In this document: in pieces, positions 3,808 to 25,301 of the stretch
Layout: each line of letters opens with the position of its first letter
How positions within the stretch are numbered: position 1 is the stretch's first letter
Origin: a virus
IMG/VR virus record: IMGVR_UViG_3300009702_000011
Span: 1 to 35,478 of that record
Length of the DNA stretch: 35,478 bases
Strand: one strand, 5' to 3'
The notes under the pieces: model-generated
The model's input: only the letters and a program-made list of their open reading frames with translations
What the model was told of the DNA's origin: nothing
Databases searched by the model: none
Program-made: the position numbers and the translations under genes

Positions 3808-4278
3808 GTGACACAGAAACTATTTGCTGAAATCACGACCGACCCGCTCGGCCGTGGATACACTGGCATGACGGACCAGCAGATTGCCGATAGCCTCAAT
3901 GCCGTGGATCGAACGCGGCTTAATGTGCTGTCTTCGGCGGAGCTATTGGCATGGTCCGGGGCCGGGGCCGACGATGCTAGTAGCGTGGCGAGTCGCTATG
4001 AACGGATCGAAACGGCTGCTAGCAGCCACGCGTCCGGGGCGGTGCGTGGTGCATGCAAAGCAGCGATCAGGCTGATTGACCGTGATGCGACCGAACTTGA
4101 CCTGTCATTGCCAGACAGAGCGACCATGGTTGCTGCCCTAGTTGCTGGTGGGGTACTAACGGCAGCCGAACAAACTGAACTAGTAGCAATGGCCACCGAG
4201 AATATCAGCCGAGCCACCGAGATCGGCATTGGTGTTGTGTACGCGGCTGATGTAACAGGAGCAAACACAAATGCCTAA
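3808..4278 (+). CDS. Hypothetical protein
   Basis: GTG 3808 follows GGAGG (3796-3800). 156-aa ORF. Confidence 0.6.
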   Translation: MTQKLFAEITTDPLGRGYTGMTDQQIADSLNAVDRTRLNVLSSAELLAWSGAGADDASSVASRYERIETAASSHASGAVRGACKAAIRLIDRDATELDLSLPDRATMVAALVAGGVLTAAEQTELVAMATENISRATEIGIGVVYAADVTGANTNA

Positions 4279-4699
4279 CGCAGTTAAATGGGCCACTGGT
4301 ACGAGTCGTACAACAGGCATTAGCTCCGCGAGTCTAGCGGCTGGAGCTAACCTCCTTGGGTCGGCGATTGATAACGCGACCAACAAAGATCGATGGATGA
4401 CATGCAAGCTGACGTGGACGTGCGGCACCGCGGCCACCGCCGACAAAGCAATCGAGTTGTACGTACTGTATGCAGTGGATGGCACCAACTACGAGGATGG
4501 TGACGCTACGCCGACCGATCCACACAAAGGCATGGCCGCAGTGTTCTTCGATGACGGCGGTACTGGAGCGCAGAAGCAAACGGTGGTGAGCGTTCCACTT
4601 ATGCCATTTAAGTTCAAGTTGTTGCTGAAATCCGAGTTAGATCAGACTGCGAGTAGTGTCACATTGTTGGCATACACGCACAACGAGGAAATTCAATAA
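4271..4699 (+). CDS. Hypothetical virion-associated protein
   Basis: 142-aa ORF. It overlaps the upstream stop, and its TAA shares a base with the next ATG (4699). Confidence 0.55.
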   Translation: MPNAVKWATGTSRTTGISSASLAAGANLLGSAIDNATNKDRWMTCKLTWTCGTAATADKAIELYVLYAVDGTNYEDGDATPTDPHKGMAAVFFDDGGTGAQKQTVVSVPLMPFKFKLLLKSELDQTASSVTLLAYTHNEEIQ

Positions 4700-5544
4700 T
4701 GGCGATATTAGCCAATGTGGATTTGCAGCGTCCATTGACAGACCATCCATTGTGGAATGGATTGCGTGGATTGTGGCTGCCAGTTGCAGAGACAGCAAGA
4801 GGTTCGACGCTATATGATCTGAGTCCACGTCCTCACCATGGCACAATGGTTGGCATGACATGGGAGGCTGTGGATGGTCGCCTTGGGCTGAATGGGACAT
4901 CGAATAGTACATACACTTCTATTGGTTCTATTGGACTGACACGATCAGCCGGTGAACCATATACAATGATCGGGGTTGCAAGAACTCGTGGTGCTAGCGG
5001 TACTCACCAAGTGATCATTGGTACTCGTAATGGTAGTAGTGCTGGTGATCTTGACAAATTATCTTTTTCGACATCATTGCTCGTAACATTTGAGTATGAT
5101 CCAACTGGTGGCGGTGCTATAGCGACTGGGACATATGCAAATACCGATCAATGGTACACTTTAATAGGCACCTATGATGGTAGTATTATTCGGCTGTATC
5201 AGGATGGCATAAATACTGGAAGTTCCGTGTCATCAACGGCGGCAATAACGGCTGATGATTATGCGATCGGTCGCCGTTCCGATGATGCTTCAGAGTATCT
5301 CAAAGGCACCTGTGCATTAGCAGCCGTCTACGACAGGGCATTTACTGCCGCTGAGGTGCGTACGTTTTACCAGCAATCCATCACCGGCTACCCAGATCTA
5401 ATCCGCCGCGTGCCAACTCGCCGAGTGTTTTATATGTCACCCGCTGGTGATGTCAATTACCCAGCCACGGTGTTGAACGCCACGGCTACCATCGAAGGCA
5501 CATCAGGTATCCAAGAGAATAGGACACTGGAGCTAACCTTATGA
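4699..5544 (+). CDS. LamG / concanavalin-A-like lectin domain protein (fibre or receptor-binding candidate)
   Basis: WYTLIGTYDGSIIRLYQDGINTGSS...YAIGRRSDD...LKGTCALAAVYDRAFTAAEV matches the LamG-domain pattern (W-h-h-h-G-T-Y-D-G-x-x-h-R-L-Y-x-D-G). Confidence 0.75.
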   Translation: MAILANVDLQRPLTDHPLWNGLRGLWLPVAETARGSTLYDLSPRPHHGTMVGMTWEAVDGRLGLNGTSNSTYTSIGSIGLTRSAGEPYTMIGVARTRGASGTHQVIIGTRNGSSAGDLDKLSFSTSLLVTFEYDPTGGGAIATGTYANTDQWYTLIGTYDGSIIRLYQDGINTGSSVSSTAAITADDYAIGRRSDDASEYLKGTCALAAVYDRAFTAAEVRTFYQQSITGYPDLIRRVPTRRVFYMSPAGDVNYPATVLNATATIEGTSGIQENRTLELTL

Positions 5545-5723
5545 GAGAAGAGACGCACAAAGAGCAGGCCAGCATGACCGTGATGGTCGATGGCAAGCCG
5601 CAGGTCGTGCCTGTCGAGCTAGAGGTTACAGATACGTATCACGATGATGGCCGCAAAGATGTGACCATCAAAGTGCCACGGCTTGATGCTGGTGCGGTAA
5701 TACCGAAAACCGAAGGAGAATGA
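5541..5723 (+). CDS. Hypothetical small protein
   Basis: 60-aa ORF with an ATGA overlap to the LamG gene stop. It ends in a double stop, TGA TAA. Confidence 0.5.
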   Translation: MREETHKEQASMTVMVDGKPQVVPVELEVTDTYHDDGRKDVTIKVPRLDAGAVIPKTEGE

Positions 5724-5726
5724 TAA

Positions 5727-6146
5727 ATGGCCGGATTATATAATCAATTCAAGACTGAGGTCATGAAGAAAACCATTGATCTCGTCAATGATACGATTAA
5801 AGTTGCGTTGCTTGACAATACTTACACATTTGCTGCAAGCGATTTAGGATGGGCAGCGGTGTCTGCCAAAGAAATATCTGGTACGGGATACGTGGCTGGT
5901 GGTGCTACGTTGGGGACCAAAACCGTGACTCAGGATGACACGGGCAATAAAGGTGTGTTCGATGCGGCAGATGTACAATGGACAGGTGCGACCTTCTCAG
6001 CGAGATTTGCTGAGATCTACGATTACAGCGTGGCGTCACCTGCTAAACCATTGATTGGTGCAATTGATTTTAGTACAGACAAGACGGTGACAGCAGGCAC
6101 ATTTACGATAACATGGGATTCGGCTGGTATTGTAACTATTAGTTAA
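5727..6146 (+). CDS. Hypothetical structural protein
   Basis: 139-aa ORF whose ATG directly follows the double stop. The beta-rich, Thr/Gly-rich composition is typical of virion proteins. Confidence 0.6.
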   Translation: MAGLYNQFKTEVMKKTIDLVNDTIKVALLDNTYTFAASDLGWAAVSAKEISGTGYVAGGATLGTKTVTQDDTGNKGVFDAADVQWTGATFSARFAEIYDYSVASPAKPLIGAIDFSTDKTVTAGTFTITWDSAGIVTIS

Positions 6147-6155
6147 ACAAGAATC

Positions 6156-6566
6156 ATGCCGATCATACTCGACATCACGGACGGCGTGGCACTCGGTGGT
6201 GCGTTATCAGCCACGGCAACGGTCGTGGCACCGGTAGTCAGTATCGATGCTACCGTGTCGCCCAATGTGTTGTCCGCCACATCGGCAATCATAGCTCCGA
6301 CAGTTAGTATTGACGCTACTGTATCACCGAGCGTGTTGGCAGCCACAGCGGCAATCGTCGCTCCGTCGATAAGTGTTGACTGCACGGTGTCACCAAGTGT
6401 TTTAGATGCAGTGGCTAGTATGCTAACACCTATTATTACTGGTGGCTTCATGGTGCCAAGTCCCGGCAACGTGGCGATCAGTGACACGGCACGATACGGA
6501 CTAGCGACCAATGACATCGTCCGCTACACGCTGACGCTCAGCGAGAATGGAGACCCCAATGGCTAA
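6156..6566 (+). CDS. Repeat-containing fibre-like protein
   Basis: 136-aa ORF containing three 22-aa tandem repeats. It has no SD and is in the same frame as 5727..6146, separated by a single TAA. Confidence 0.55.
   Translation: MPIILDITDGVALGGALSATATVVAPVVSIDATVSPNVLSATSAIIAPTVSIDATVSPSVLAATAAIVAPSISVDCTVSPSVLDAVASMLTPIITGGFMVPSPGNVAISDTARYGLATNDIVRYTLTLSENGDPNG
6207..6404 (+). repeat. 3 x 66-bp in-frame tandem repeat (22-aa unit SAT-x-x-[VI][VI]AP-x-[VI]S[IV]D[AC]TVSP-x-VL)
   Basis: The units are SATATVVAPVVSIDATVSPNVL, SATSAIIAPTVSIDATVSPSVL and AATAAIVAPSISVDCTVSPSVL at 6207-6272, 6273-6338 and 6339-6404. Confidence 0.85.
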
Positions 6567-6861
6567 CACTTACGACAAAGGCGATCTGGTACGTGTGACA
6601 GCCACGTGGACTGATCCCCTAAACTCAGATGCGGCCATCGATCCATCAACAGTCGCAATAGATGTGACCACACCGAGCGGCACGACAACGCCATACGTCT
6701 ATGGTACGGACGCCGAGGTCAAGCGAGATTCGATTGGTATATATTACATGGATTTGTCACTTACCGAGGAAGGTACATGGAAGTATAGATGGTACTCCAC
6801 TGGTGCAGCGCAGGCGGCCGAACAAGCCAAGATATTCGCCAAGGAAGTGATCACGGTCTAA
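6547..6861 (+). CDS. Small beta-rich (Ig-like?) virion protein
   Basis: 104-aa ORF, with an alternative ATG at 6559. Its TAA shares a base with the HNH ATG at 6861. Confidence 0.6.
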   Translation: METPMANTYDKGDLVRVTATWTDPLNSDAAIDPSTVAIDVTTPSGTTTPYVYGTDAEVKRDSIGIYYMDLSLTEEGTWKYRWYSTGAAQAAEQAKIFAKEVITV

Positions 6862-7274: not shown

Positions 7275-7736
7275 ATGCCAACAGGACGCAAACCAACACC
7301 GACGCGACTTAAACTGCTTCGCGGAGTTGACAAAGTACATCTAGAGCGGATCAATCGCAATGAGCCACAGCCAGACGAGACAACGCCAATCATGCCGAGC
7401 GGTCTTGACCCGATGGCGAAGCGACGATGGCGTGAGTTGAGCAAGATATTGCGGTCGATGCGAGTACTGACGATCGCGGACCGTCAGGCGTTGGCAACGT
7501 TGTGCCAGACGATTTCAGACATTCATAAGATGCGAAAGATACTAGCGAAAGATGGTCATGTCGTTGACACGGAACGTGGACCGATTCGCAACCCAGCGGC
7601 AATCGAGCTTCACAAACTCGAAGACATTCAACTGAAATTACTGGCCGAGTTCGGACTGACACCAAGTAGTCGCAGTCGCATTACGGTTGAACCCAAGAAA
7701 TCGTCAATCAAGCCGAGGGAGCGCAAGAAGGCGTGA
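7275..7736 (+). CDS. terS: Terminase small subunit (P27-family-like)
   Basis: MPTGRKPTPTRLKLLRG...EP.P......P..L...A...W is typical of P27-family small terminases. It sits directly upstream of terL with a GTGA overlap. Confidence 0.85.
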   Translation: MPTGRKPTPTRLKLLRGVDKVHLERINRNEPQPDETTPIMPSGLDPMAKRRWRELSKILRSMRVLTIADRQALATLCQTISDIHKMRKILAKDGHVVDTERGPIRNPAAIELHKLEDIQLKLLAEFGLTPSSRSRITVEPKKSSIKPRERKKA

Positions 7737-9346
7737 CGGATCGCATTACGAAACACTGGGTCTTAGACGCGTCCGACGAGCTGGCAGTGCGCAATGGCTG
7801 CCGGTTCGACGAGTCGCGAGCCCAGCATGTGATGCAGTTCTTCGAGCAGCAGTTAGTGCTTTATGAAGGCGATTGTGCCGGGCAACCTTTCAGATTGATG
7901 GACTGGCAGGCGTTGTTTTTGTCGCGGCTCTTCGGTTGGGTCCGATATAGCAAGCATTTTGGTCGCGAGGTACGTCGCTTCCGCAAGGCATCTCTGTGGG
8001 TGCCCAAAAAAAATGGCAAGTCACCGACTGGCGCCGGCATCGGACTGTATTTGCTCGTCGCAGACGGCGAACTTGGTCAGAAAGTGTTTTCAGCAGCACG
8101 GGACGGTCGACAGGCCGGGATCATGCACATGCACGCGCGGCAGATGGTGTTGCAATCGCCGGCACTGCGCGAATGTTGCACGATTAATAAATCGACCGGG
8201 CGCATAACCCACGAGCCAACGCGTTCGTGGTATGAGATCATGTCGGCTGACAATGTGCGGTCACAGGAAGGTTACAACGGCTCGGTGATCATTGACGAGA
8301 CGCACGTTGTCGATGATCGGTTGGCGAAAGTGCTTGAGTATGCTGGCGCGAGTCGCGCTGAGCCATTGCAGGTTGAATTGTCGACGGCCGGCGACACCCC
8401 CGAAGGTTACGGCAAGCGACAGTGGGATTACGGCCAGGCGGTTGCTGACGGTCGCATCAAAGACGATTCATTTCTGTACGTGGCTTACGCGGCGCCGCAG
8501 GATGCCAGTGACAAGGAGCTGGCCAAGAAGAAGACCTGGCGAGCGGCTAACCCGTCAATGGGCGTGACGGTCAACGAGGAGGAGTTCGCCGCATCGCTCA
8601 AGCGTGCTAAGCGGACGCCACACGACTGGGCGGTGTTCAAGAAGTACCGGTTCAACATTTGGCAAAACTCGGCGAATCCGTGGTTTAACCTCGATGACGA
8701 CTGGTGGCCCAGCCAAGACACCGAGACGGACATTAAAGGCTATGAGTGCGTTGCTGGCCTGGACCTTTCGCGGACTCGGGATATGTCGGCCTTGGTGCTA
8801 CTGATCCGTGTGGACGATCATCTACACCAGCGTGCATGGTTCTGGTTGCCGGAGCAACGGGCGCGCGAAATCGAAGAGGTTGGTATCGCGTCAATCAGCC
8901 AGTGGGAGAAAGATGGCTGGCTCGAGGTTACGCCGGGCAACGTGATCGATTACCAGTACATCGAGGATCGCGTTGCGAAGTTGGCTCAGGAGTATTACAT
9001 CACGCGGTTGGTGTTTGACCCGCGATTTGCCGAGGAACTGACCCAGCGGATCGAGATGAACTATGGTATTCAGCGAGTCGCGTTAGCGCAGTCGGCCGCG
9101 AAAATGACACCACCGATTGACGAATACGAGCGGCAAGTGTTGGCTCACACGATCCATCACGATGGCAACCCGGTGCTCGCCTGGCAGGCTGGCAATGTGA
9201 AGGTTCACACGTATCCAAGCGGTGTCAAGATGCTGGTGAAGCCGGACTTTGACCAAATGAAATCAATTGACGGCATCGTGGCGGCTGTAATCGCGATGAG
9301 CGAGGCAATGGCGGTCGACTCGGTTGGCAAACCTGCTATTTATTGA
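7733..9346 (+). CDS. terL: Terminase large subunit
   Basis: 537 aa. It carries a Walker-A-like VPKKNGKSPTGAG, an IIDETH Walker-B/DExH-like motif and a C-terminal nuclease region (GLDLS...D). The position is conserved. Confidence 0.95.
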   Translation: MTDRITKHWVLDASDELAVRNGCRFDESRAQHVMQFFEQQLVLYEGDCAGQPFRLMDWQALFLSRLFGWVRYSKHFGREVRRFRKASLWVPKKNGKSPTGAGIGLYLLVADGELGQKVFSAARDGRQAGIMHMHARQMVLQSPALRECCTINKSTGRITHEPTRSWYEIMSADNVRSQEGYNGSVIIDETHVVDDRLAKVLEYAGASRAEPLQVELSTAGDTPEGYGKRQWDYGQAVADGRIKDDSFLYVAYAAPQDASDKELAKKKTWRAANPSMGVTVNEEEFAASLKRAKRTPHDWAVFKKYRFNIWQNSANPWFNLDDDWWPSQDTETDIKGYECVAGLDLSRTRDMSALVLLIRVDDHLHQRAWFWLPEQRAREIEEVGIASISQWEKDGWLEVTPGNVIDYQYIEDRVAKLAQEYYITRLVFDPRFAEELTQRIEMNYGIQRVALAQSAAKMTPPIDEYERQVLAHTIHHDGNPVLAWQAGNVKVHTYPSGVKMLVKPDFDQMKSIDGIVAAVIAMSEAMAVDSVGKPAIY

Positions 9347-16585: not shown

Positions 16586-16893
16586 ACAATCCGCTCTATC
16601 GGCTGGCGTTTCGATTGTGCTTGGTGACCGGTGAATTGCACCCGGATCGATTGTTAGAGAGGCTAACAGCGGCCGAGTTATTGAGCTGGTGGACCTATTA
16701 TCAGAATGAGCCATGGGGTGAAGAACGAGCCGATTTGCGAGAAATGGCGGTTATTGGCATGACCCATGGCAGTGACGAATTTCGGCTCCCGTGGCCCTAC
16801 GCGGAGCCGAAGCCGGACGCCGACGAACTGCTGGACGAATTCGAGCGACTGAAAGATATGGACCATGGCAACAGCGGCGAAAATCGACATTAA
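16271..16893 (+). CDS. Tail assembly chaperone GT-like fusion via -1 programmed frameshift at 16576-16582
   Basis: The -1 frame has a TAA at 16573-16575 and is open from 16576 to 16893. It overlaps the tape-measure start at 16865. Confidence 0.65.
16576..16582 (+). promoter_or_regulatory. Slippery heptamer A AAA AAC (-1 frameshift site)
   Basis: Zero-frame codons are GCT AAA AAA AAC TAG. The X XXY YYZ pattern sits at 16576-16582, directly before the stop. Confidence 0.65.
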
Positions 16894-18001
16894 GCTGGAC
16901 GCTCAGACAGCCGCACTGAAAAAGGGTCTCGCCGAGTCCCGGCAATCTATTGATCGCCTGGGTAAAGGCATGTCCGGCAATGTGGCAATGGGCATGGCCA
17001 AGTTTCAAGCTGGCTTGATCGCCGTACAAGCGGTTCTTGGAGCGGTCAGTGGAGCGATGCACGGTGTCGTCGAGGCCATGCGAGACATGGATCGCACGCA
17101 GAAAGTGGCGGATCGACTTGGCATTACCGCGGATGCGTTGAATGTGTTGGGATTTGCCGCCGAGCAATCCGGGGCCAGTCAGGATCAACTCAACACTGCG
17201 TTGACGCAGCTAAGCAATCGTGTGTCCGATGCTGCCCAGGGGATTGGCGATGGCAAGAAAGCACTTGATGACCTCGGGTTGTCAGCCGAGGCCATCAATA
17301 ATTTGACCGTCGATCAGCAGTTGTCAATCATCGCCGATGCCATGCAAGGAGTCGAGAATCACAGCGACAAGGTCCGCATCGCGATGGACCTATTCGGTCG
17401 CAGCGGCACCGAGTTACTCAACATGCTCGAAGGTGGCAGTGCTGGACTCAATGATTTCGCTGCACAGGCGGATGATCTCGGTTTGACACTCGGGGACAGC
17501 CGAGAGGAAGTGGAAGCGGCCAACGACGCGATCAATCGCATGAAACGAGCATGGGGGGCATTGGTCGATAAAATCGTCGTTGCAATCGCACCGGCGATCG
17601 AGTTGATTGCAACCGCGTTGGCCAAAGTCGTAGGTTGGTTTAATCAGCTCTTTGGCCTTGGTGGTGATGTCAAATTCGATTCACTGGCGAAGGCCGGTGA
17701 CAAAGTCAAGGCGTCCATGGAAGGCACGCATGAGGCGGTCAAGAAGACTGTCGAGAAAGTGCACGAAGCCACGAAAAAAACTGTTGATATGGCCCGTGAA
17801 CTCGGCAAAATCCAGCGCATGAAAACGTCCGGTGTGGGGGCCGTCACGCGTAGTTCAGCGGCCGGATTTTCTGCCGTTCAGCAAGGCATTCGTGACCGTG
17901 CGGACACAAAACGCTGGCGAGCTGCGATGCTCAAGAAGCAAGATGAGATTGTTGCGGCGGCCAAAGCCGGCCAAATAATCTTGGCGGAGGGGTCCATCTA
18001 A
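16865..18001 (+). CDS. Tape measure protein (short, 378 aa)
   Basis: Called from its position after G/GT and its Ala/Gly/Leu-rich helical composition. It contains a hydrophobic segment IVVAIAPAIELIATALAKVVGWF. Confidence 0.8.
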   Translation: MATAAKIDIKLDAQTAALKKGLAESRQSIDRLGKGMSGNVAMGMAKFQAGLIAVQAVLGAVSGAMHGVVEAMRDMDRTQKVADRLGITADALNVLGFAAEQSGASQDQLNTALTQLSNRVSDAAQGIGDGKKALDDLGLSAEAINNLTVDQQLSIIADAMQGVENHSDKVRIAMDLFGRSGTELLNMLEGGSAGLNDFAAQADDLGLTLGDSREEVEAANDAINRMKRAWGALVDKIVVAIAPAIELIATALAKVVGWFNQLFGLGGDVKFDSLAKAGDKVKASMEGTHEAVKKTVEKVHEATKKTVDMARELGKIQRMKTSGVGAVTRSSAAGFSAVQQGIRDRADTKRWRAAMLKKQDEIVAAAKAGQIILAEGSI

Positions 18002-19089
18002 TGGCGGTTATCAGAGTATGGGAATCGCAAGAGGCGGCCAGCGGTGGCGTCGACAAAATGGGCAACCGTCAATATGCGGCACCATATTTATGTCAGGTGG
18101 ATAGTGCTTATGATGGACCAGTAACGATTATGAATCACTTGTCGGCCAACGGACCATGGCCAGGTGACAGTTTCCGTTATGGCAACGAGACGGATTCCAC
18201 GGTCCTCTGCACTGGCATTTCATCGCCGAAACGAGTGTCCGAGAGTACTGATGTGTGGACGTTTGTAGCCACCTATTCGACGCCAGACCCGGCCGATGAC
18301 AAGCCGGACGACAATGGCGAACCAAGTGATACGCCGAATGACTGGCGTATGCATGTCAGCGTGAACACGTCACCGTTCAGCGTGCCGGTGCGGCAGGCGT
18401 GGAACGTAGATCCGATTCCCGTTCCCGGCAAGTTTTCATCATTTGTCCGGCCGGCATTTACCTACGGCCCAGTCGTAAATTCAGCCGGCGTCCCATACGA
18501 TCCGCCGCTAATGAAAGAGGACAACGAGATCATCTATCGGATCAAGGGATTTACCGAAACGCTCAAAGTTGCTGATCTGGATTGGCCAATCAACAACATC
18601 AATTCGGTGTCGCTTCGCTGGGTTACGCGACTCCAGAAATACTATGGCCTAAAGAATGACAAATTCGAAGCATTCACGCTGAAGTGTACGTCCGTGGCAG
18701 CGGACGTTGGTTGGTGGCGTGATCTGGTCTATTACACGATCGATTACGAGTTTCGTTATCGCCACCGAGCTGCCAATTTCGAGGATCCGGTCGATGGGTG
18801 GCTGGAGTATGTGCTGGATCGTGGTAATTCACGTCTCGCTGGAGCTGGCGACCCAGACGGCCGAGGCGGTACTGTGTCGGCTCTGGACCTCAAGGATGGA
18901 GTTGCACATGCGGCACCAATCCTTGATGTTGATGGCCGCCGTGTATCCGAGGCGATTCTATTAGACGGTGCCGGCCAACCAGCCACGGGCGATGATCTCA
19001 AGAATGGCGTATGGTTCGAGTGGAAGATCAATAGTGACGATGCCGATTTTACAAAATTGGCCATTCCGATATTTATGAGTGGCGTGTGA
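18001..19089 (+). CDS. Distal/minor tail protein
   Basis: 362-aa ORF directly after the tape measure gene, with stop/start overlap (TAATG). Confidence 0.5.
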   Translation: MAVIRVWESQEAASGGVDKMGNRQYAAPYLCQVDSAYDGPVTIMNHLSANGPWPGDSFRYGNETDSTVLCTGISSPKRVSESTDVWTFVATYSTPDPADDKPDDNGEPSDTPNDWRMHVSVNTSPFSVPVRQAWNVDPIPVPGKFSSFVRPAFTYGPVVNSAGVPYDPPLMKEDNEIIYRIKGFTETLKVADLDWPINNINSVSLRWVTRLQKYYGLKNDKFEAFTLKCTSVAADVGWWRDLVYYTIDYEFRYRHRAANFEDPVDGWLEYVLDRGNSRLAGAGDPDGRGGTVSALDLKDGVAHAAPILDVDGRRVSEAILLDGAGQPATGDDLKNGVWFEWKINSDDADFTKLAIPIFMSGV

Positions 19090-19466
19090 GTGCTATGAGA
19101 CGCGTTACTATTTTTGATACCAAGGCGCTAGCCAAGTTGAAGGCTGATCACAATCGGCTGGAGCATGAAGTACGTGACATGCGTGCGACGCTGCGGCGGT
19201 TCGTCGCTGGCATTGGCGACGCGGACTCCGGTGTCTATATCGCGGTTACCGGGGCCGGTGGTGTTCCCGCATTAGCTGGCGCCACGCCTGGTAGTGCCAC
19301 GGTGACGCTGAAGGGGATCGACAATACCGGCGCGCTAATATCCACGTCACGTACCGTCACGGCCTACAATTTGTCAGCGACAGCGGTTGGTGCGAACAAA
19401 TTCATCCAGATCAAACGCGAGTGGGTGACCGGCAAATACGTCGTGGACTTCGAAGATTGCACATAA
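19086..19466 (+). CDS. Hypothetical tail-associated protein
   Basis: 126 aa with a GTGA overlap. It has an N-terminal coiled-coil-like segment. Confidence 0.5.
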   Translation: MSAMRRVTIFDTKALAKLKADHNRLEHEVRDMRATLRRFVAGIGDADSGVYIAVTGAGGVPALAGATPGSATVTLKGIDNTGALISTSRTVTAYNLSATAVGANKFIQIKREWVTGKYVVDFEDCT

Positions 19467-19481
19467 CTTCGGAGGTGCCAC

Positions 19482-19934
19482 ATGGGCGGTGGGTTCAAAA
19501 AGAATAATCCAGGTTGCAACTGTTGCGGAGCTACGGCGTGCAGTTTTTGCACAAGCGGGACCACACCAGAAACAATCTCGGTTACCATCTCCGGTGTAAC
19601 CGACAGCTATTGCGATGCATGTTCGACACTCGATGGTACGTACGTGCTGACGAAGACCGCGGCGGACCCGTGTGTTTGGGACTATTCTACGCCGATATTT
19701 ACTCAGCAATGTGGAGTCTATAATCCACCGAGTTCGCGATCATGGTATCTGAAGATATTCGCGACATTGAGCGGTGGCTGGCAATTTGAAATTGGTTCGG
19801 TCGGTCTGGCGGATGCGATCTATACGTTATCGTTGGCGAGTCCGTTTGACTGTAGCGTGGCAAGGACGTTAAATCGTACGCAACAGGGCACGGCTTGCTC
19901 ATTTCCTTCCACTGTGACGATTACACCAGCATGA
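19482..19934 (+). CDS. Cys-rich 150-aa protein (11 Cys; N-terminal GCNCCG..ACSFC)
   Basis: ATG 19482 follows GGAGG (19471-19475). Its stop overlaps the next ATG (ATGA at 19931-19934). Confidence 0.65.
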   Translation: MGGGFKKNNPGCNCCGATACSFCTSGTTPETISVTISGVTDSYCDACSTLDGTYVLTKTAADPCVWDYSTPIFTQQCGVYNPPSSRSWYLKIFATLSGGWQFEIGSVGLADAIYTLSLASPFDCSVARTLNRTQQGTACSFPSTVTITPA

Positions 19935-20863
19935 GCGAGTGTACATTTGAAATCACCGGGCCAAATGAAAGAACGTGCACACGTTGTGGACGCATCATTC
20001 AGTCGCCGCATCCACCAGAGCGATGCCACGCGGTCTGTCCGGCTGGGACGCCAGATGAGAAGGCTGGTTTGCCACGAGGGTGGGCTGGGTCATGCACTAA
20101 GCAATGGTACACTACATCGCAGCTCGTTGCGGACACGCAGATGCTCTACCCACTCATCCCACAAGACATATCACGGGTGGTCGGCGTACCGCGTAGCGGG
20201 ATGATACCTGCGGCGATCTTGGCAACGCATCTCCATGTGCCACTTTATGGCATCCGTGACGGACAATTGGTGGCGATGGACGCGGGTGACCGAATGAACA
20301 ATACGTCAGAGCGGCAGGGCCGTACGCTGCTGGTTGAGGACTCCGTGGGGATCGGGCATCGGGTGCGAAAGCTGGCAAGTACGCTGCCAATTGATCAGTG
20401 GTGCAAGTTGGCCATCTACGTGCTACCACGAAGCAAGCACCTGGTCGACATCTATGCCAAAGAAGTACCCGCACCGCATTTGTTCGAGTGGAACTTTTTC
20501 AATGGGGTCTTTATGCGTTCTGCGGCATTGGATATGGATGGCATCATATGCCGTGACGTTACCGGAGAGCCGCAGTATGTGCCACGTAACGTACCGTGTG
20601 CAGCAATCATTACCGCACGACCCGAGAGTGCGAGAGCGGCGACTGTGGCGTGGCTCAATCGATATGGAGCGAGGTACGACAGGTTGATTATGTGGCCGGG
20701 CCAAACTGCGGACCGCAATCTGTACTCGCAGGCGGATTGGAAGGTTGAAATGATGCGGGACGTGTCGGCGGACATCTACGTGGAGTCGTGTCCGTATTTA
20801 TCGGGCGAGATGCGTAAACGCGGTATGAGGGTGTTGTGTCCGCAGGAAGGAATCCTCAGGTGA
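19931..20863 (+). CDS. Zn-ribbon-like N-terminus + phosphoribosyltransferase-like domain + HAD-like phosphatase domain fusion
   Basis: CTRCG...CHAVC at the N-terminus. VVGVPRSGMIPAAILA and TLLVEDSVGIGHRV resemble PRTase motifs (PRPP loop). ALDMDGIICRD and AIITARP resemble HAD motifs I and II. Confidence 0.65.
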   Translation: MSECTFEITGPNERTCTRCGRIIQSPHPPERCHAVCPAGTPDEKAGLPRGWAGSCTKQWYTTSQLVADTQMLYPLIPQDISRVVGVPRSGMIPAAILATHLHVPLYGIRDGQLVAMDAGDRMNNTSERQGRTLLVEDSVGIGHRVRKLASTLPIDQWCKLAIYVLPRSKHLVDIYAKEVPAPHLFEWNFFNGVFMRSAALDMDGIICRDVTGEPQYVPRNVPCAAIITARPESARAATVAWLNRYGARYDRLIMWPGQTADRNLYSQADWKVEMMRDVSADIYVESCPYLSGEMRKRGMRVLCPQEGILR

Positions 20864-21867
20864 GTAAGCACATTAGGTTCTGTCCGATACCATTCGATCA
20901 TCTCAATAAGGAATCACGTCGATATGCCACCTGTTGCCCAGGCTGGCTCGATGGCACCCGATTTGTTTACGAGCACAATGCCGACCCATGGCAGACATGG
21001 AACCATCCGACGCTAGTGGAGCTGCGACAGGCGGTGCTTGATCAGGATTGGCGGTTCTGTCAGAAGTGCCCAAACCGTTATCGGGTCCAGGACCGTGATG
21101 GACCTCGTGCCGACGACAAGGCCATTATGGAGAGGCCGCCGGTGACGGTTGGATTTGGGGATAACATGACGTGCAACTTGCGGTGTCCGAGCTGTCGGAC
21201 ACATATCGTGCGGGAGCAAACCACGCAAGGCCCGAGCGTCGCGGAGATATGCGATGGGTTTGACGGTCGGCTCCCAACAGTCGCACTCAACGTGAGCGGT
21301 GACCCGTTCGCGAATGCCGAACATCGGGCGTTCATGCAGTCAGAAGGGCCGGAGGATCTGATTATCTGGACTAATGGCGTGCTATTGCCACGGTACTGGG
21401 ACAGTATCCAGCGAAAAGTTACCGTCCTATTAACCTCGATCGATGCGGCAACGAAAGAGACATACGAATGGGTGCGGCAACCAGCGAAATGGCCGCAGCT
21501 CATGGCATGCCTGGCAAAGTGCCACGAGATTGTCGCCAGCAAGCAACTGGAGATTTGGCAGTGCAATTTCGTCGTGCAGGCTCGCAATTTTCGCGAGATG
21601 CCGGCTTTCGCCGAGATGTGCATCGAGTATGGGGCTACTGCGGTGCAGTACACGCCGATCGCACCATGGCAGCACATCACGCCGGAACAATGGCACGATC
21701 GCAATATTCAGAATCCGCATCACCCGGATTACTCGGAATATTTGGACGTGCTACAAGATCCGCTATTGCAATTGCCGGGAGTGGATGTCGGTTTGGTATC
21801 ACCACAATCAACACAATGGTTTGCAAACGCCGCACCGCAGCAAAATTATTTCAGCATACAGCCATGA
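20860..21867 (+). CDS. Radical SAM enzyme with N-terminal Cys-rich extension
   Basis: CNLRCPSC (CX3CX2C) at 21172-21195, a GDPF glycine-rich SAM motif, and N-terminal FCPIPF...CCPGW...FCQKCP. GTG 20860 overlaps the upstream TGA. Confidence 0.85.
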   Translation: MSKHIRFCPIPFDHLNKESRRYATCCPGWLDGTRFVYEHNADPWQTWNHPTLVELRQAVLDQDWRFCQKCPNRYRVQDRDGPRADDKAIMERPPVTVGFGDNMTCNLRCPSCRTHIVREQTTQGPSVAEICDGFDGRLPTVALNVSGDPFANAEHRAFMQSEGPEDLIIWTNGVLLPRYWDSIQRKVTVLLTSIDAATKETYEWVRQPAKWPQLMACLAKCHEIVASKQLEIWQCNFVVQARNFREMPAFAEMCIEYGATAVQYTPIAPWQHITPEQWHDRNIQNPHHPDYSEYLDVLQDPLLQLPGVDVGLVSPQSTQWFANAAPQQNYFSIQP

Positions 21868-22463
21868 TCATATTCCCGAGCCAGGGTCTGATCTTCATTC
21901 ACTCGCCGCGTACTGGTGGCACGAGTCTCAATTTTGCCATTCGGCAGATCGTGCCTGATGCGATAGTGCGGTCGCACGGGGTCGCAGAGCAGCATATGCG
22001 GGCAGCCACGGCCCGTGCTCATTATCCTGGACATGATCTGGTCACTATTACTCGCAACCCGTGGGACGTGTATGCGAGTATTTACCGTATGGCTCGCCGA
22101 GTCGCGCAGGATCGCGATACGAGTTTCTGGCAGCCACATGCGCTGGACAATGTGCTCGCATGGTCGCGACTGTCATTCTCGCAATTCTTATTGCAGACTG
22201 TCGGCCGAGACACATTTCGCCTGTCACATGCTGGGGGATTCACGGCCAGCTATGCCGACGCGTATACGACGATACTGCGATACGACGAGCATCCATTTCG
22301 GGTGCTGGGTGTGTTGCTTGGTGCAAAGGTCGAGGTAAAACGCGAGAACGCTGGTGTGACTGACGTCGAGATACCGTGGATGGCCTGGATGGTGGATCTG
22401 GTCGGCGAGCAGTGTCACATCGATGTCGAGCGATTCGGCTACCGGCCGCCGGACGTGCGGTAG
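21864..22463 (+). CDS. Sulfotransferase-family protein
   Basis: LIFIHSPRTGGTSL (5'-PSB-like) and LVTITRNPWDVYASIY (3'-PB-like) resemble the motifs of carbohydrate-type sulfotransferases. ATGA overlap at 21864-21867. The ORF-track start at 21468 is an out-of-gene extension. Confidence 0.75.
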   Translation: MIIFPSQGLIFIHSPRTGGTSLNFAIRQIVPDAIVRSHGVAEQHMRAATARAHYPGHDLVTITRNPWDVYASIYRMARRVAQDRDTSFWQPHALDNVLAWSRLSFSQFLLQTVGRDTFRLSHAGGFTASYADAYTTILRYDEHPFRVLGVLLGAKVEVKRENAGVTDVEIPWMAWMVDLVGEQCHIDVERFGYRPPDVR

Positions 22464-22675
22464 TTGTGGAGTTGCTGTACTGCGCGCTGCATATCGTTGG
22501 CAATTTCTTGGACGGATTGGCGAGCGCGATGCATTCGCACCTCGTAGGCGACCCACAGTCCGAGCGTTACCGATTGTAACGCGATGGCGATCACTACCCC
22601 AACAGCGAGCCAGTTGAGACGACCGCGGAGCGCTCTGACCTGCCTGGCGAGTCGTTGTATTGCGGGATCTGACAT
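22439..22675 (-). CDS. Small single-pass membrane protein (opposite strand; superinfection-exclusion/moron candidate)
   Basis: 78 aa with GGAGG 7 nt upstream of the ATG on the minus strand. The TM segment is WLAVGVVIAIALQSVTLGLWVAY. Its 3' end overlaps the sulfotransferase 3' end by 25 nt. Confidence 0.5.
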   Translation of the reverse strand: MSDPAIQRLARQVRALRGRLNWLAVGVVIAIALQSVTLGLWVAYEVRMHRARQSVQEIANDMQRAVQQLHNYRTSGGR

Positions 22676-22754: not shown

Positions 22755-22783
22755 TTGACATATTATCGCGGTGCCGATATACT
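22755..22783 (+). promoter_or_regulatory. Strong sigma70-type early promoter (TTGACA-17-TATACT)
   Basis: TTGACA at 22755-22760, a 17-bp spacer and TATACT at 22778-22783. It sits upstream of the first early gene. Confidence 0.6.
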
Positions 22784-24329: not shown

Positions 24330-25301
24330 CTACTTGTCGTCCTCGCTCGGCTCCGACAACCGGAATAACACATCGCATGGCTGCGTCGTCTTGACGATCC
24401 GCGGGTCCAGGTAGGATTCGGTCACCCGGCGGCTGGTGTGACCGAGCAGGGCCGTAGCATTGCCGCCAGCAGCCTCGTAGTGGCTGGCGACTGAGCGTCT
24501 CATGCGGTGGAATTTGCTGCGGCGATCGGTAGGCAGTCCCGCCTGCTTGAGGATTTTGGCGTACCGGGTCCATATGTACGCCCGAGAATATGGCCAGGGC
24601 CAAATCAGCCTGCGATCTGGCGTGCGGATCGACCGCAACAACTTGACGGCCTCGCGTGAGATTCGGTAGGTCATGTCCGCATGCTTTGCCTTCCGCAATT
24701 CGGCCGGAATCTTAACCCACCGGTCGATCAGGTCAACGCAATCCCACGTCAATTGCCACAGGGCACCAATCCGCTCCCCAGTGTCCCAGCAGACCAGGTG
24801 CAGGGACATCCACCACTGACCGGCGGGGATGCCTGCTATCGTCCCGCTCTGGGCAGCACAGGACGCGTAAAGACGATTGAGTTCGTGGCGTGTCCACGCC
24901 ATCGGTATCCGGACAGGCTCGTCCACACGCGGCGTGGTGGGCAGATGATGGACGACTCCCCGGCGGACCAGCCAGGTCCAGAGCGAGTGAATGCGGCCGC
25001 GACGTTCATTGACCGTTTTCGGCGCCAGGCCACGGTCGATCATTTCGTGCATCAGGGCCGCGATGTTGTCGTCCGTAAGATCGCCTATTACAGGTTCGCG
25101 ACCCAATACGGCGGCGAATTCATTCATCGCCAGACCGTATTGCAGACGTGTCTTCGGACTGCGGATCGTGACTGACAACCGGAAATAATCCTCTTCCATC
25201 ACCTTGCGGAGACTATTCGAGCAATGCATTGGTACGCAGATTATAATGGCGTAATAACGCCATCCGTGGTATCCACGTCTCCGACGGTCCACATGCTCCA
25301 T
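24330..25301 (-). CDS. int: Tyrosine recombinase / phage integrase
   Basis: TGERIGAL (Arg I), FHRMRRSVASH (H-x-x-R) and LLGHTSRRVTESYL (His...Tyr). The likely start is an internal Met at 25229 or 25199. Confidence 0.9.
   Translation of the reverse strand: MEHVDRRRRGYHGWRYYAIIICVPMHCSNSLRKVMEEDYFRLSVTIRSPKTRLQYGLAMNEFAAVLGREPVIGDLTDDNIAALMHEMIDRGLAPKTVNERRGRIHSLWTWLVRRGVVHHLPTTPRVDEPVRIPMAWTRHELNRLYASCAAQSGTIAGIPAGQWWMSLHLVCWDTGERIGALWQLTWDCVDLIDRWVKIPAELRKAKHADMTYRISREAVKLLRSIRTPDRRLIWPWPYSRAYIWTRYAKILKQAGLPTDRRSKFHRMRRSVASHYEAAGGNATALLGHTSRRVTESYLDPRIVKTTQPCDVLFRLSEPSEDDK

Follow-up and report, generated by a model that had tools for sequence, protein, structure and literature searches.

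A four-gene module behind the tail genes

The window analyzed here is a whole metagenomic contig of 35,478 nt (IMG/VR record IMGVR_UViG_3300009702_000011) which derives from a temperate tailed phage. Behind its tail genes, four consecutive genes, hereafter g1 to g4, encode a small Cys-rich protein, a fusion of a type-I phosphoribosyltransferase (PRT) with a HAD phosphatase, a radical S-adenosyl-L-methionine (SAM) enzyme and a sulfotransferase-like protein. This module is considered below as a putative cassette for the decoration of the virion from phosphoribosyl pyrophosphate (PRPP). Its genes and the translation signals read from the sequence are:

19471-19475, + strand: Shine-Dalgarno sequence GGAGG, 6 nt 5′ of the g1 ATG
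19482-19934, + strand: g1, 150 aa
19931-20863, + strand: g2, 310 aa
20844-20851, + strand: Shine-Dalgarno-like AGGAAGGA, 5′ of the g3 GTG start
20860-21867, + strand: g3, 335 aa
21864-22463, + strand: g4, 199 aa

These genes are real, and their limits, first given in an earlier model-made annotation of the same DNA (the original prediction), proved exact together with their junctions, at which consecutive genes overlap by 4 nt (ATGA 19931-19934, GTGA 20860-20863 and ATGA 21864-21867). A gap of 15 nt separates g1 from the preceding tail open reading frame (ORF), which ends at 19466. The start of g2 is backed by the N-terminus "M..C.F..C..CG" found in relatives (P0007, P0015 and P0022), that of g3 by a conserved "MS.HI.FCP.PF" and that of g4 by a conserved "MII/YxP". 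Alternative starts (TTG 19895, GTG 20836 and ATG 21468) were rejected as unsupported, the N-termini of the relatives aligning with the starts listed above. Public gene calls on the contig are shorter, giving a g2 of 220 aa (P0001) and a g3 of 191 aa (P0210); compared with the conserved N-termini, these calls are truncated, and the database copies thus lack the zinc-ribbon head of g2 and the N-terminal Cys cluster of g3.

Overlaps of 4 nt occur throughout the late operon (at 7733, 9343, 10938, 13959, 14294, 15209 and 19086). As they are the style of the whole operon, they do not set the module apart. Diverged relatives (loci L113, L138, L002 and L141), however, keep both the overlaps at these junctions and the order of the genes, and this recurrence is beyond chance.

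Catalytic domains of g2, g3 and g4

All motifs quoted in the original prediction are present, and their residues are invariants of the g2, g3 and g4 family alignments. The corresponding features are:

20099-20500, + strand: PRT domain of g2 (about residues 57-190)
20522-20863, + strand: HAD domain of g2 (residues 198-310, about 110 residues)
20881-21069, + strand: N-terminal auxiliary Cys cluster of g3 (C8, C25, C26, C67 and C70)
21172-21195, + strand: radical SAM CX3CX2C motif of g3 (C105, C109 and C112, invariant)
21900-21926, + strand: 5′-phosphosulfate binding (PSB) loop of g4, HSPRTGGTS
22053-22079, + strand: 3′-phosphate binding (3′-PB) motif of g4, RNPWDVYAS

In g2, a variable Cys-rich zinc-ribbon head is followed by the type-I PRT domain and by a C-terminal HAD phosphatase domain. 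Protein searches retrieved 56 homologues, and the AlphaFold2 (AF2) model reaches a predicted local distance difference test score (pLDDT) of 91. The PRT domain contains a pyrophosphate (PPi) loop, VGVPRSGM (R88, S89 and G90), the loop residues G119 and R121, and a PRPP motif, LLVEDSVGIG (D137). Among 36 relatives, R88, S89, G90 and D137 are invariant, as are D201, D203, T228, K271 and E285 of the HAD domain. Searched against PDB sequences, the family profile matches XPRT/XGPRT across the whole PRT domain (E = 1e-11), and the top Foldseek matches of the model are the XGPRT structures 6kqc and 1a95 (E ~8e-8, target TM 0.6-0.7). PRPP motif, PPi loop, profile and fold place g2 in the type-I PRT superfamily (PF00156). 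Taken alone, g2 scores under the PF00156 cut-off (16.7 vs 26.3 bits), and several relatives carry a precomputed PF00156 match. It falls outside the xanthine/6-oxopurine PRT family NF006613 (26.6 bits vs a cut-off of 138). Gly140, at a position which is variable in the family, and Leu162 align with the third Asp of DDLVD and with the Lys of FAKPAG in XGPRT, two residues that contact the purine. At the PRT-HAD junction, the g2 family has an invariant motif of its own, P-H-L-L-E-W-N.

The HAD domain displays motif I (D201-x-D203), motif II (T228), motif III (K271) and motif IV (E285-S286) on a beta-alpha-beta core modelled with a pLDDT >94, and belongs on these grounds to the HAD superfamily. In the AF2 model, no helical insert is found between motifs I and II (22 residues) or between motifs II and III, so that the domain is predicted to be capless. 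Capless HADs usually act on large substrates, or have another domain serving as cap. By sequence, this domain matches the polynucleotide kinase family phrog_415 (E = 4e-6) and Pnkp1 (4xrp, E = 6e-5), and a profile restricted to it retrieves Pnkp1 only from the PDB (E = 7e-3). Both parts of the PRT-HAD assignment of g2 are therefore retained, and the protein looks catalytically complete: its intact residues make up two full catalytic sets, one of the type for pyrophosphate displacement from PRPP and one of the type for phosphate monoester hydrolysis.

As the best matches of the HAD domain are polynucleotide kinase/phosphatases (PNK), a role on nucleic acids has to be considered, either as DNA hypermodification or as a PRTase of the ComFC or polyvalent-protein type acting on DNA or RNA ends with a PNK-type phosphatase. 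Phage-borne type-I PRTase domains of polyvalent proteins have been described which, like g2, possess a conserved, ComFC-like Arg in the loop after strand 2 and whose role is enigmatic (Iyer et al., 2017; PMC5512222); in addition, locus L002 contains NT5C and DNMK genes 4-5 kb downstream. The polyvalent-protein PRTases are, however, fused to MuF or to other domains of injected proteins and were proposed to have an early role on nucleic acids or nucleotides (PMC5512222), whereas g2 is fused to a HAD domain and encoded after the tail genes. Moreover, the PNK similarity is confined to generic HAD motifs, as the value obtained with the HAD domain alone indicates, and no polymerase, glycosylase/transglycosylase or nucleotide-kinase gene lies in or beside the module in the window. 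The module is also located in the tail operon and not in the replication block, and its neighbours are glycan enzymes. A nucleic-acid role is thus very improbable. A ComFC-like function in DNA uptake was rejected because the context is wrong.

The radical SAM enzyme g3 has 308 homologues, of which cellular relatives at ~30% identity carry the Pfam SPASM domain (PF13186). The CX3CX2C motif, the core and PDB profile matches down to E = 1e-9 assign it to the radical SAM superfamily; alone, it scores under the Pfam cut-off (15.2 vs 29.5 bits), and relatives carry PF04055. C8, C25, C26, C67 and C70 are invariant among 25 family members, and so is an SGDPF motif in the family. The best curated match is NF033640, N_Twi_rSAM (E = 1.2e-12), and the score of 47.7 bits, compared with a cut-off of 170 bits, makes g3 a diverged phage branch of N_Twi_rSAM. 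The twitch-like auxiliary cluster placed at the N-terminus, which the original prediction had pointed out as unusual, is thus supported by the conserved Cys pattern, and this arrangement has already been named (N_Twi_rSAM).

The N_Twi_rSAM and SPASM/twitch enzymes such as BtrN, BlsE and anSME share with g3 the CX3CX2C core and, for N_Twi_rSAM, the extra N-terminal Cys cluster. In contrast to SPASM enzymes, g3 is devoid of a C-terminal SPASM domain and of a peptide-recognition domain; indeed, no extra or peptide-recognition domain was detected in Pfam and NCBIfam scans. PDB profile searches matched g3 with BlsE, BtrN, viperin-like enzymes and anSME over their radical SAM cores, and its own core most resembles that of enzymes whose substrates are nucleosides, nucleotides or sugars (BlsE, viperin-like enzymes, BtrN and MoaA). 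An identity as viperin or pVip was rejected, since NF038283 gave 16.3 vs 180 bits and the PADLOC pVip model 25.7 bits, on the core only; PADLOC returned nothing for g1, g2 and g4. A scan of viral contigs with g3 alone retrieved nothing, the genome contexts of its cellular relatives were uninformative, and a literature search on N-terminal-twitch radical SAM enzymes found nothing.

As originally proposed, g4 holds as a sulfotransferase at the family and motif level. Its sequence contains the elements of sulfotransferases that depend on 3′-phosphoadenosine 5′-phosphosulfate (PAPS), namely a P-R-T-G-G-x-S PSB loop, a putative catalytic His and the 3′-PB Arg and Ser. P15, R16, H44, R64 and S72 are invariant among 15 relatives, and the Arg-to-Ser spacing is 8, which is the canonical spacing of the sulfotransferase 3′-PB motif. 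Twelve of the 15 family members match phrog_3347, annotated as Galactose-3-O-sulfotransferase (best E = 2e-12). By hhalign, the g4 family connects to neighbour cluster c17 (97%) and c17 to c26 (95%), which passes Pfam Sulfotransfer_2 (PF03567); the direct comparison of the g4 family with the Sulfotransfer_2-positive cluster reached only 14%. Carbohydrate sulfotransferases (PF03567; phrog_3347) have PSB loop, catalytic His and 3′-PB Arg/Ser in common with g4, but g4 is very short (199 aa), has Arg in place of Lys in the PSB loop and remains under Pfam thresholds. A 78-aa ORF with a hydrophobic segment (22439-22675, - strand) is convergent with g4 and overlaps its last 25 nt.

Genomic context, relatives and the g1 domain

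The following features define the surroundings of the module in the window:

7733-9346: terminase large subunit
16865-18001, + strand: tape measure protein (phrog_9483, E = 1e-45)
18001-19089 and 19086-19466, + strand: two distal-tail ORFs which run straight into g1
22755-22783, + strand: near-consensus promoter TTGACA-17-TATACT, which opens the next gene block
24330-25301, - strand: integrase of the window phage

Genes for the portal, protease, major head, tail terminator and major tail proteins are also present, and genes for an N6/N4 DNA methylase and for a DnaB helicase are located in the right arm. No match was obtained when the window was scanned for Rfam families and tRNAs. The original placement of the module after the tail operon was correct, as the tape measure gene and the distal-tail ORFs lead into g1. 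No sigma-70-like promoter site occurs on the + strand between 17811 and 22755, and the next promoter lies at 22755-22783; the module is therefore the distal end of the late (tail) operon. The order tape measure protein, small tail ORFs, g1-domain protein and PRT-HAD is also found in L138 and in the group-A loci. Searches against 50,697 deposited phages, with the module by blastn and with g2 by tblastn, gave no match, and there is thus no cultured-phage annotation for the cassette. The window phage itself is without a close relative in this set.

Relatives were collected by an alignment-based scan using the g2 family as anchor. PRT-HAD relatives were found in 191 stretches of viral contigs (IMG/VR), on contigs of 6 to 166 kb, and in 28 genome loci, 21 of them in Planctomycetota, including Stieleria magnilauensis TBK1r (two copies), Thalassoglobus neptunius KOR42 and Pirellulaceae SH449. 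For the analysis of neighbours, 112 loci were reduced to 76 at 90% identity and the neighbouring genes were clustered, upstream counts being made on 72 loci and downstream counts on 64. A same-strand gene ends within 60 nt upstream of PRT-HAD in 63 of the 72 loci. The gene directly upstream encodes a g1-domain protein in 21/72 loci and, in 16/72, the 144-aa protein of cluster c3, which itself follows a ~1000-aa repetitive fibre-like protein. Tape measure genes are found a few genes further upstream. The upstream neighbour is thus nearly always of the tail type, and the position behind the tail genes is conserved.

Downstream, at least one recognizable tailoring gene lies within 4 kb in 37 of the 64 loci. 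These genes encode sulfotransferase-like proteins (23 loci), Methyltransf_24 proteins (16), g3-type radical SAM enzymes (8), cytidylyltransferases (6), polysaccharide pyruvyl transferases (5) or a second PRT-HAD (5), and GT1 or GT2 glycosyltransferases are present in several loci too. The downstream neighbours are recurrent and variable: they are substituent-adding enzymes typical of glycans, which vary around a constant PRT-HAD.

The co-occurrence check suggested in the original prediction was positive. The full order g1 domain, PRT-HAD, radical SAM enzyme and sulfotransferase, with overlapping junctions, is found in L138/L139, a 69-kb phage in which the cassette continues with GT1, Methyltransf_24 and GT1 genes. 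The closest relative, L113/L114, has the same four-gene order, with the g1 domain of L113 at the end of a longer protein, and the trio of PRT-HAD, radical SAM enzyme and sulfotransferase also occurs in L036, L051, L054 and L056. In addition, the gene of the closest g1 homologue (59% identity) overlaps by ATGA with a downstream ORF whose N-terminus is of the PRT-HAD type. Since the full order and the trio recur in diverged lineages, the juxtaposition of the four genes is not due to chance.

The partner families also extend beyond this arrangement. A reciprocal scan from the sulfotransferase family yielded 59 new viral loci, and as PRT-HAD is present in only 3 of them, this family is far wider than the cassette. 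In L150-L155 and L196, an N-twitch radical SAM enzyme and a sulfotransferase stand next to an HldE-like kinase, a label judged from N-terminal sequence and not from a profile match, with no PRT-HAD within the 6-kb flanks. In L140, the two are found next to Pfam-annotated PfkB, CTP_transf_like and Glyco_transf_9 genes, and PRT-HAD lies 3.7 kb from the radical SAM gene. These loci suggest a wider family of phage sugar-tailoring cassettes.

PRT-HAD also occurs in more than one copy. The two loci of TBK1r (NZ_CP036432.1; L098 and L099) are ~44 kb apart, have identical match coordinates and scores and are each preceded by a tape-measure-type gene; they may represent a duplicated or tandem prophage. 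The regions concerned span ~7.945-7.960 and ~7.990-8.005 Mb of this chromosome, and the region of KOR42 spans ~2.739-2.754 Mb of NZ_SIHI01000001.1. In the Planctomycetaceae metagenome-assembled genome (MAG) bin-253 (L085-L089, L092 and L100), at least seven contigs encode a near-identical ORF of ~660-710 aa that contains two complete PRT-HAD units, one behind the other. Tandem PRT-HAD genes that are separate from each other are found in L023, L026, L033, L047, L069, L073, L081 and L096.

The tailoring genes found downstream of PRT-HAD are the enzyme set of polysaccharide loci, which points to the host surface as another possible target. A host envelope glycan would be ribosylated and sulfated on its cytoplasmic lipid-linked intermediate, resulting in lysogenic conversion, superinfection exclusion or late receptor masking. 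The phage has an integrase, and the module lies between it and the tail genes, which is where the serotype-converting genes of P22-like phages sit. Copies are present in Planctomycetota chromosomes, and the known bacterial ribofuranosyltransferases, which are cytoplasmic, have O-antigens and capsules as substrates (PMC11127046; PMC11294581). However, neither a flippase nor a GT-C nor any further membrane protein is encoded in the module, which also lacks a separate promoter-like site and is coupled translationally to the tail genes. Furthermore, PRT-HAD relatives are spread over contigs of 25 to 166 kb, a range which argues against a purely lysogeny-linked role, and the association with g1 at the domain level would be left unexplained. 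Modification of the host surface is thus unlikely, although it ranks second among the readings of the original prediction. A gtr serotype-conversion cassette was rejected, as g1 to g4 match no GtrA, GtrB or GT-C family (Pfam, PHROGs and NCBIfam scans, with no dedicated transmembrane predictor).

The same neighbours bear on the possibility that the module makes a free nucleoside-like metabolite, such as a sulfated molecule that would serve as a signal, as a toxin or against defence. In its favour, both the sequence and the fold of the PRT domain are nearest to XGPRT, the core of g3 is nearest to nucleoside, nucleotide and sugar enzymes, and for Ter systems the synthesis of nucleoside derivatives by PRTase and HAD pairs has been predicted (PMC7824862; PMC5512222). 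In these systems, as far as they are presented in PMC7824862 and PMC5512222 (after Anantharaman et al., 2012), a type-I PRTase is linked to a HAD, a prediction from genomics only, as it is here. There, the PRTase and HAD genes are separate and stand among TerB, TerC, TerD, TerF and TelA, whereas a fusion is found here amid tail and glycan-tailoring genes. No TerB, TerC, TerD, TerF or TelA family was found among the called neighbours (L001-L004 and L138-L140), the neighbour clusters and the scanned part of the window ORFs. The Ter system, to which the original prediction had compared the module, was thus abandoned as an analogy, the annotated neighbours being glycan-tailoring enzymes.

Against a free nucleoside also stand the replacement of the XGPRT Asp and Lys by Gly140 and Leu162, the invariant P-H-L-L-E-W-N motif and the capless HAD. 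The neighbours are pyruvyl, methyl and sulfo transferases, cytidylyltransferases and glycosyltransferases, with no exporter, immunity or Ter gene among them, and the tight link to the 3′ end of the tail genes across phage lineages would have no explanation. A product of this kind is accordingly doubtful, and both free nucleosides and DNA modification are disfavoured among the functions that were originally listed.

The remaining protein, g1, contains 11 Cys residues. Ten positions are invariant or nearly so in its family, including two CxxC pairs, and C20, C23, C47, C64, C124 and C139 are invariant in the family alignment. The family is unnamed and comprises at least 203 representatives at 50% identity, mostly of 140-180 aa, while some members are domains within proteins of 300-650 aa. 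The AF2 model (pLDDT 85) shows a ten-stranded all-beta domain. A structural comparison of this model with the PDB revealed no meaningful fold neighbour (best E = 0.02, with designed beta-barrels), and among predicted viral structures the model has one BFVD match, to an unnamed 170-aa protein (E = 3.6e-4). A weak CBM13-like Pfam match was dismissed.

The g1 domain exists as a standalone protein, at the C-terminus of 444-aa proteins, at both ends of a 1134-aa protein and at the N-terminus of RHS-repeat proteins encoded 3′ of PRT-HAD. Since it forms the termini of fibre-like and RHS-type proteins, g1 is taken as the last tail gene and not as a peptide precursor. It is better read as a small Cys-rich all-beta tail protein, encoded by the last gene of the tail module, and as a candidate acceptor or partner of g2. 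In L095 (4721-8890) and L097 (9473-10762), the g1-like domain heads RHS-repeat proteins one or two genes downstream of PRT-HAD; these proteins adjoin a GT2-TPR protein, and the contigs belong to Planctomycetota MAGs.

The N-terminal motif of g1 was also traced in viral contigs by a degenerate DNA pattern. This motif, M..KKNNPGCxCC (window 19494-19526), is found at the start of many phage proteins (140-890 aa; L115-L135) whose C-terminal parts are unrelated and several of which carry LamG-like sequence. It looks like a shared N-terminal module, possibly for attachment, of tail or receptor-binding proteins. As the degenerate pattern marks many unrelated tail-type proteins, it is a weak reciprocal test. 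Within residues 44-53 of g1 (window 19611-19640), L-[N/D]-x-T-[F/Y/H] is conserved after the second CxxC and reads as an N-x-T sequon-like motif in many members. The Thr of this motif, which is highly conserved, may have a structural role or be a site of modification.

This description of g1 bears on a maturation similar to that of ribosomally synthesized and post-translationally modified peptides (RiPPs), in which the radical SAM enzyme would install thioether or other crosslinks in g1. The Cys content of g1 and the presence of peptide maturases and anSME among SPASM/twitch radical SAM enzymes are consistent with such a function. Nevertheless, g1 is a confidently folded 150-aa beta domain whose CxxC pairs are typical of metal sites, and not a leader-core peptide, and no peptide-recognition domain was detected in g3. 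Furthermore, the radical SAM enzyme and g1 do not track each other, the former being present in ~5 of ~26 g1-domain loci, in at least four loci without a g1 domain and in sugar-nucleotide contexts. Crosslinking of g1 is thus highly unlikely, and the RiPP-like reading was given up.

A putative PRPP-dependent decoration cassette

Collectively, these data lead us to propose that g2 to g4 constitute a PRPP-dependent ribosylation and decoration cassette for a virion tail protein or glycan, a reading to which we assign a probability of roughly 45%. It retains the virion-decoration half of an original hypothesis whose other half was RiPP-like maturation. The identity of donor and acceptor, the sequence of the reactions and the chemistry of g3 are inferred as follows. 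The three enzymes would act in the cytoplasm during virion assembly. The PRT domain of g2 would transfer ribose-5-phosphate from PRPP onto a nucleophile, and its capless HAD domain would then strip the 5-phosphate, with ribosylation as the net result. The radical SAM enzyme g3 may remodel the sugar or its surroundings, for example by oxidation, epimerization or dehydration, and g4 would add sulfate from PAPS. The likeliest acceptor would be a tail protein with a g1 domain or a glycan borne by such a protein. Within this proposal, the attachment of ribose from PRPP to some acceptor, followed by tailoring, is more secure than the nature of the target.

A macromolecular or glycan acceptor is favoured over a free base because the neighbours add sulfate, methyl, pyruvyl, CDP- or CMP-activated groups and sugars, because the HAD domain is predicted to be capless, and because the purine-contact positions of XGPRT are not conserved, the family having its own P-H-L-L-E-W-N motif instead. 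A virion tail protein appears as the likeliest target since PRPP, PAPS and SAM are all cytoplasmic and g1 to g4 matched no membrane-protein family in Pfam, PHROGs and NCBIfam. In addition, the coupling to tail genes is seen in phages that differ widely in size, and the g1 domain accompanies PRT-HAD in several architectures, with either gene order. The lack of a separate promoter-like site and the coupling of the module to the tail genes also count for virion decoration.

Two precedents exist for the steps proposed here. The first is the PRPP-dependent two-step ribofuranosylation of glycans (PMC11127046; PMC11294581), in which bacterial ribofuranosyltransferases combine a PRPP-type phosphoribosyl transferase and a HAD in one polypeptide, as g2 does. 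In both cases, the enzymes are soluble and cytoplasmic, glycan-tailoring genes are close by, and tandem or polymerizing versions occur. The domain order, however, is an N-terminal PRP (HAD) and a C-terminal gPRT in the bacterial enzymes (PMC11294581), whereas it is reversed in g2 (zinc-ribbon, PRT and HAD), and the PRP domain has an alpha-helical cap (PMC11127046), whereas the HAD domain of g2 is predicted to be capless and PNK-like. Bacterial ribofuranosyltransferases are encoded in O-antigen or capsule loci, and g2 in a phage tail operon. PDB profile searches with the g2 family and with its HAD domain returned no chain named ribofuranosyltransferase. In its model, the PRT domain of g2 has the canonical type-I, XGPRT-like fold, whereas the gPRT domain is reportedly a distinct fold, a description said to be that of Kelly et al. 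in 2022. On this comparison, the cassette is best described as analogous to the bacterial ribofuranosyltransferases and not as a member of their family.

The second precedent is the glycosylation of virions by phage enzymes encoded after the structural genes (Freeman et al., 2023, as cited in PMC12619734). In mycobacteriophages, according to that summary, the sugar-adding enzymes end the structural block and modify virion proteins in the cytoplasm; they are Leloir glycosyltransferases acting on the C-termini of capsid and tail-tube proteins, whereas the cassette described here has a PRT-HAD core with sulfate, methyl and pyruvyl neighbours, and its target is predicted from the genes. The original statement that no described phage system has this combination agrees with our literature search, which found no paper on PRT, sulfotransferase and radical SAM enzyme together in a phage. 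The cassette is real, recurrent and uncharacterized.

Several points weigh against this proposal. The nearest relatives of the PRT domain are purine PRTs, which take free bases as acceptors, and to our knowledge all well-studied type-I PRTs use small nitrogen nucleophiles. The tail protein with the g1 domain is a candidate acceptor predicted at the level of genes; g1-family genes without PRT-HAD exist (L124 and L142), and many PRT-HAD loci are devoid of a g1 domain. The label "fibre-like" given to the ~1000-aa protein (cluster 2) reflects its size and repetitive sequence only, with no PHROG match. In temperate phages, unrelated accessory genes are commonly located after the tail genes, and part of the synteny may therefore be positional. 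Concerning g4, its Pfam score is below threshold (11.4 vs 22 bits), a Pfam scan of all 15 family members gave nothing significant, and the match of its profile to PDB sequences (SULT4A1, E = 0.27) is non-significant.

A more specific and more tentative proposal is that environmental phages in their hundreds, especially phages of Planctomycetota, may use a type-I PRT and a capless HAD to ribosylate a tail-tip protein, with the g1 domain as candidate, directly from PRPP, while radical SAM enzymes and sulfo-, methyl- and pyruvyl-transferases, combined in a mix-and-match manner, would diversify the decoration. If true, this would represent a new post-translational modification of virions, and ribofuranosyltransferases would exist in a second type that evolved independently. 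The addition of ribose from PRPP would have arisen on two occasions, by a dedicated glycosyltransferase domain of bacterial O-antigen and capsule pathways and by an ordinary PRT of the purine-salvage type in phages. The host-recognition apparatus of phages would carry sugars substituted by sulfate or other groups, with a bearing on host range, on evasion of immunity or defence and on the ecology of Planctomycetota, which are specialists of sulfated polysaccharides. A first functional context would also be gained for the Cys-rich g1 domain, for the N-terminal-twitch radical SAM enzymes of the phage branch and for the family of short phage sulfotransferases. Should the product instead be a free sulfated nucleoside, it would be a new phage-made metabolite. 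The cassette should surprise specialists of phage structure and of glycan biosynthesis, and related copies are present in cultured Planctomycetota.

Two further observations concern the left part of the window. A second virion-like gene group lies upstream of the terminase gene, at 4271-6861, and includes a LamG/ConA-like protein (4699-5544). Further upstream, the ORF at 532-1905 encodes a trypsin-like peptidase with a long Pro-rich and hydrophobic tail.

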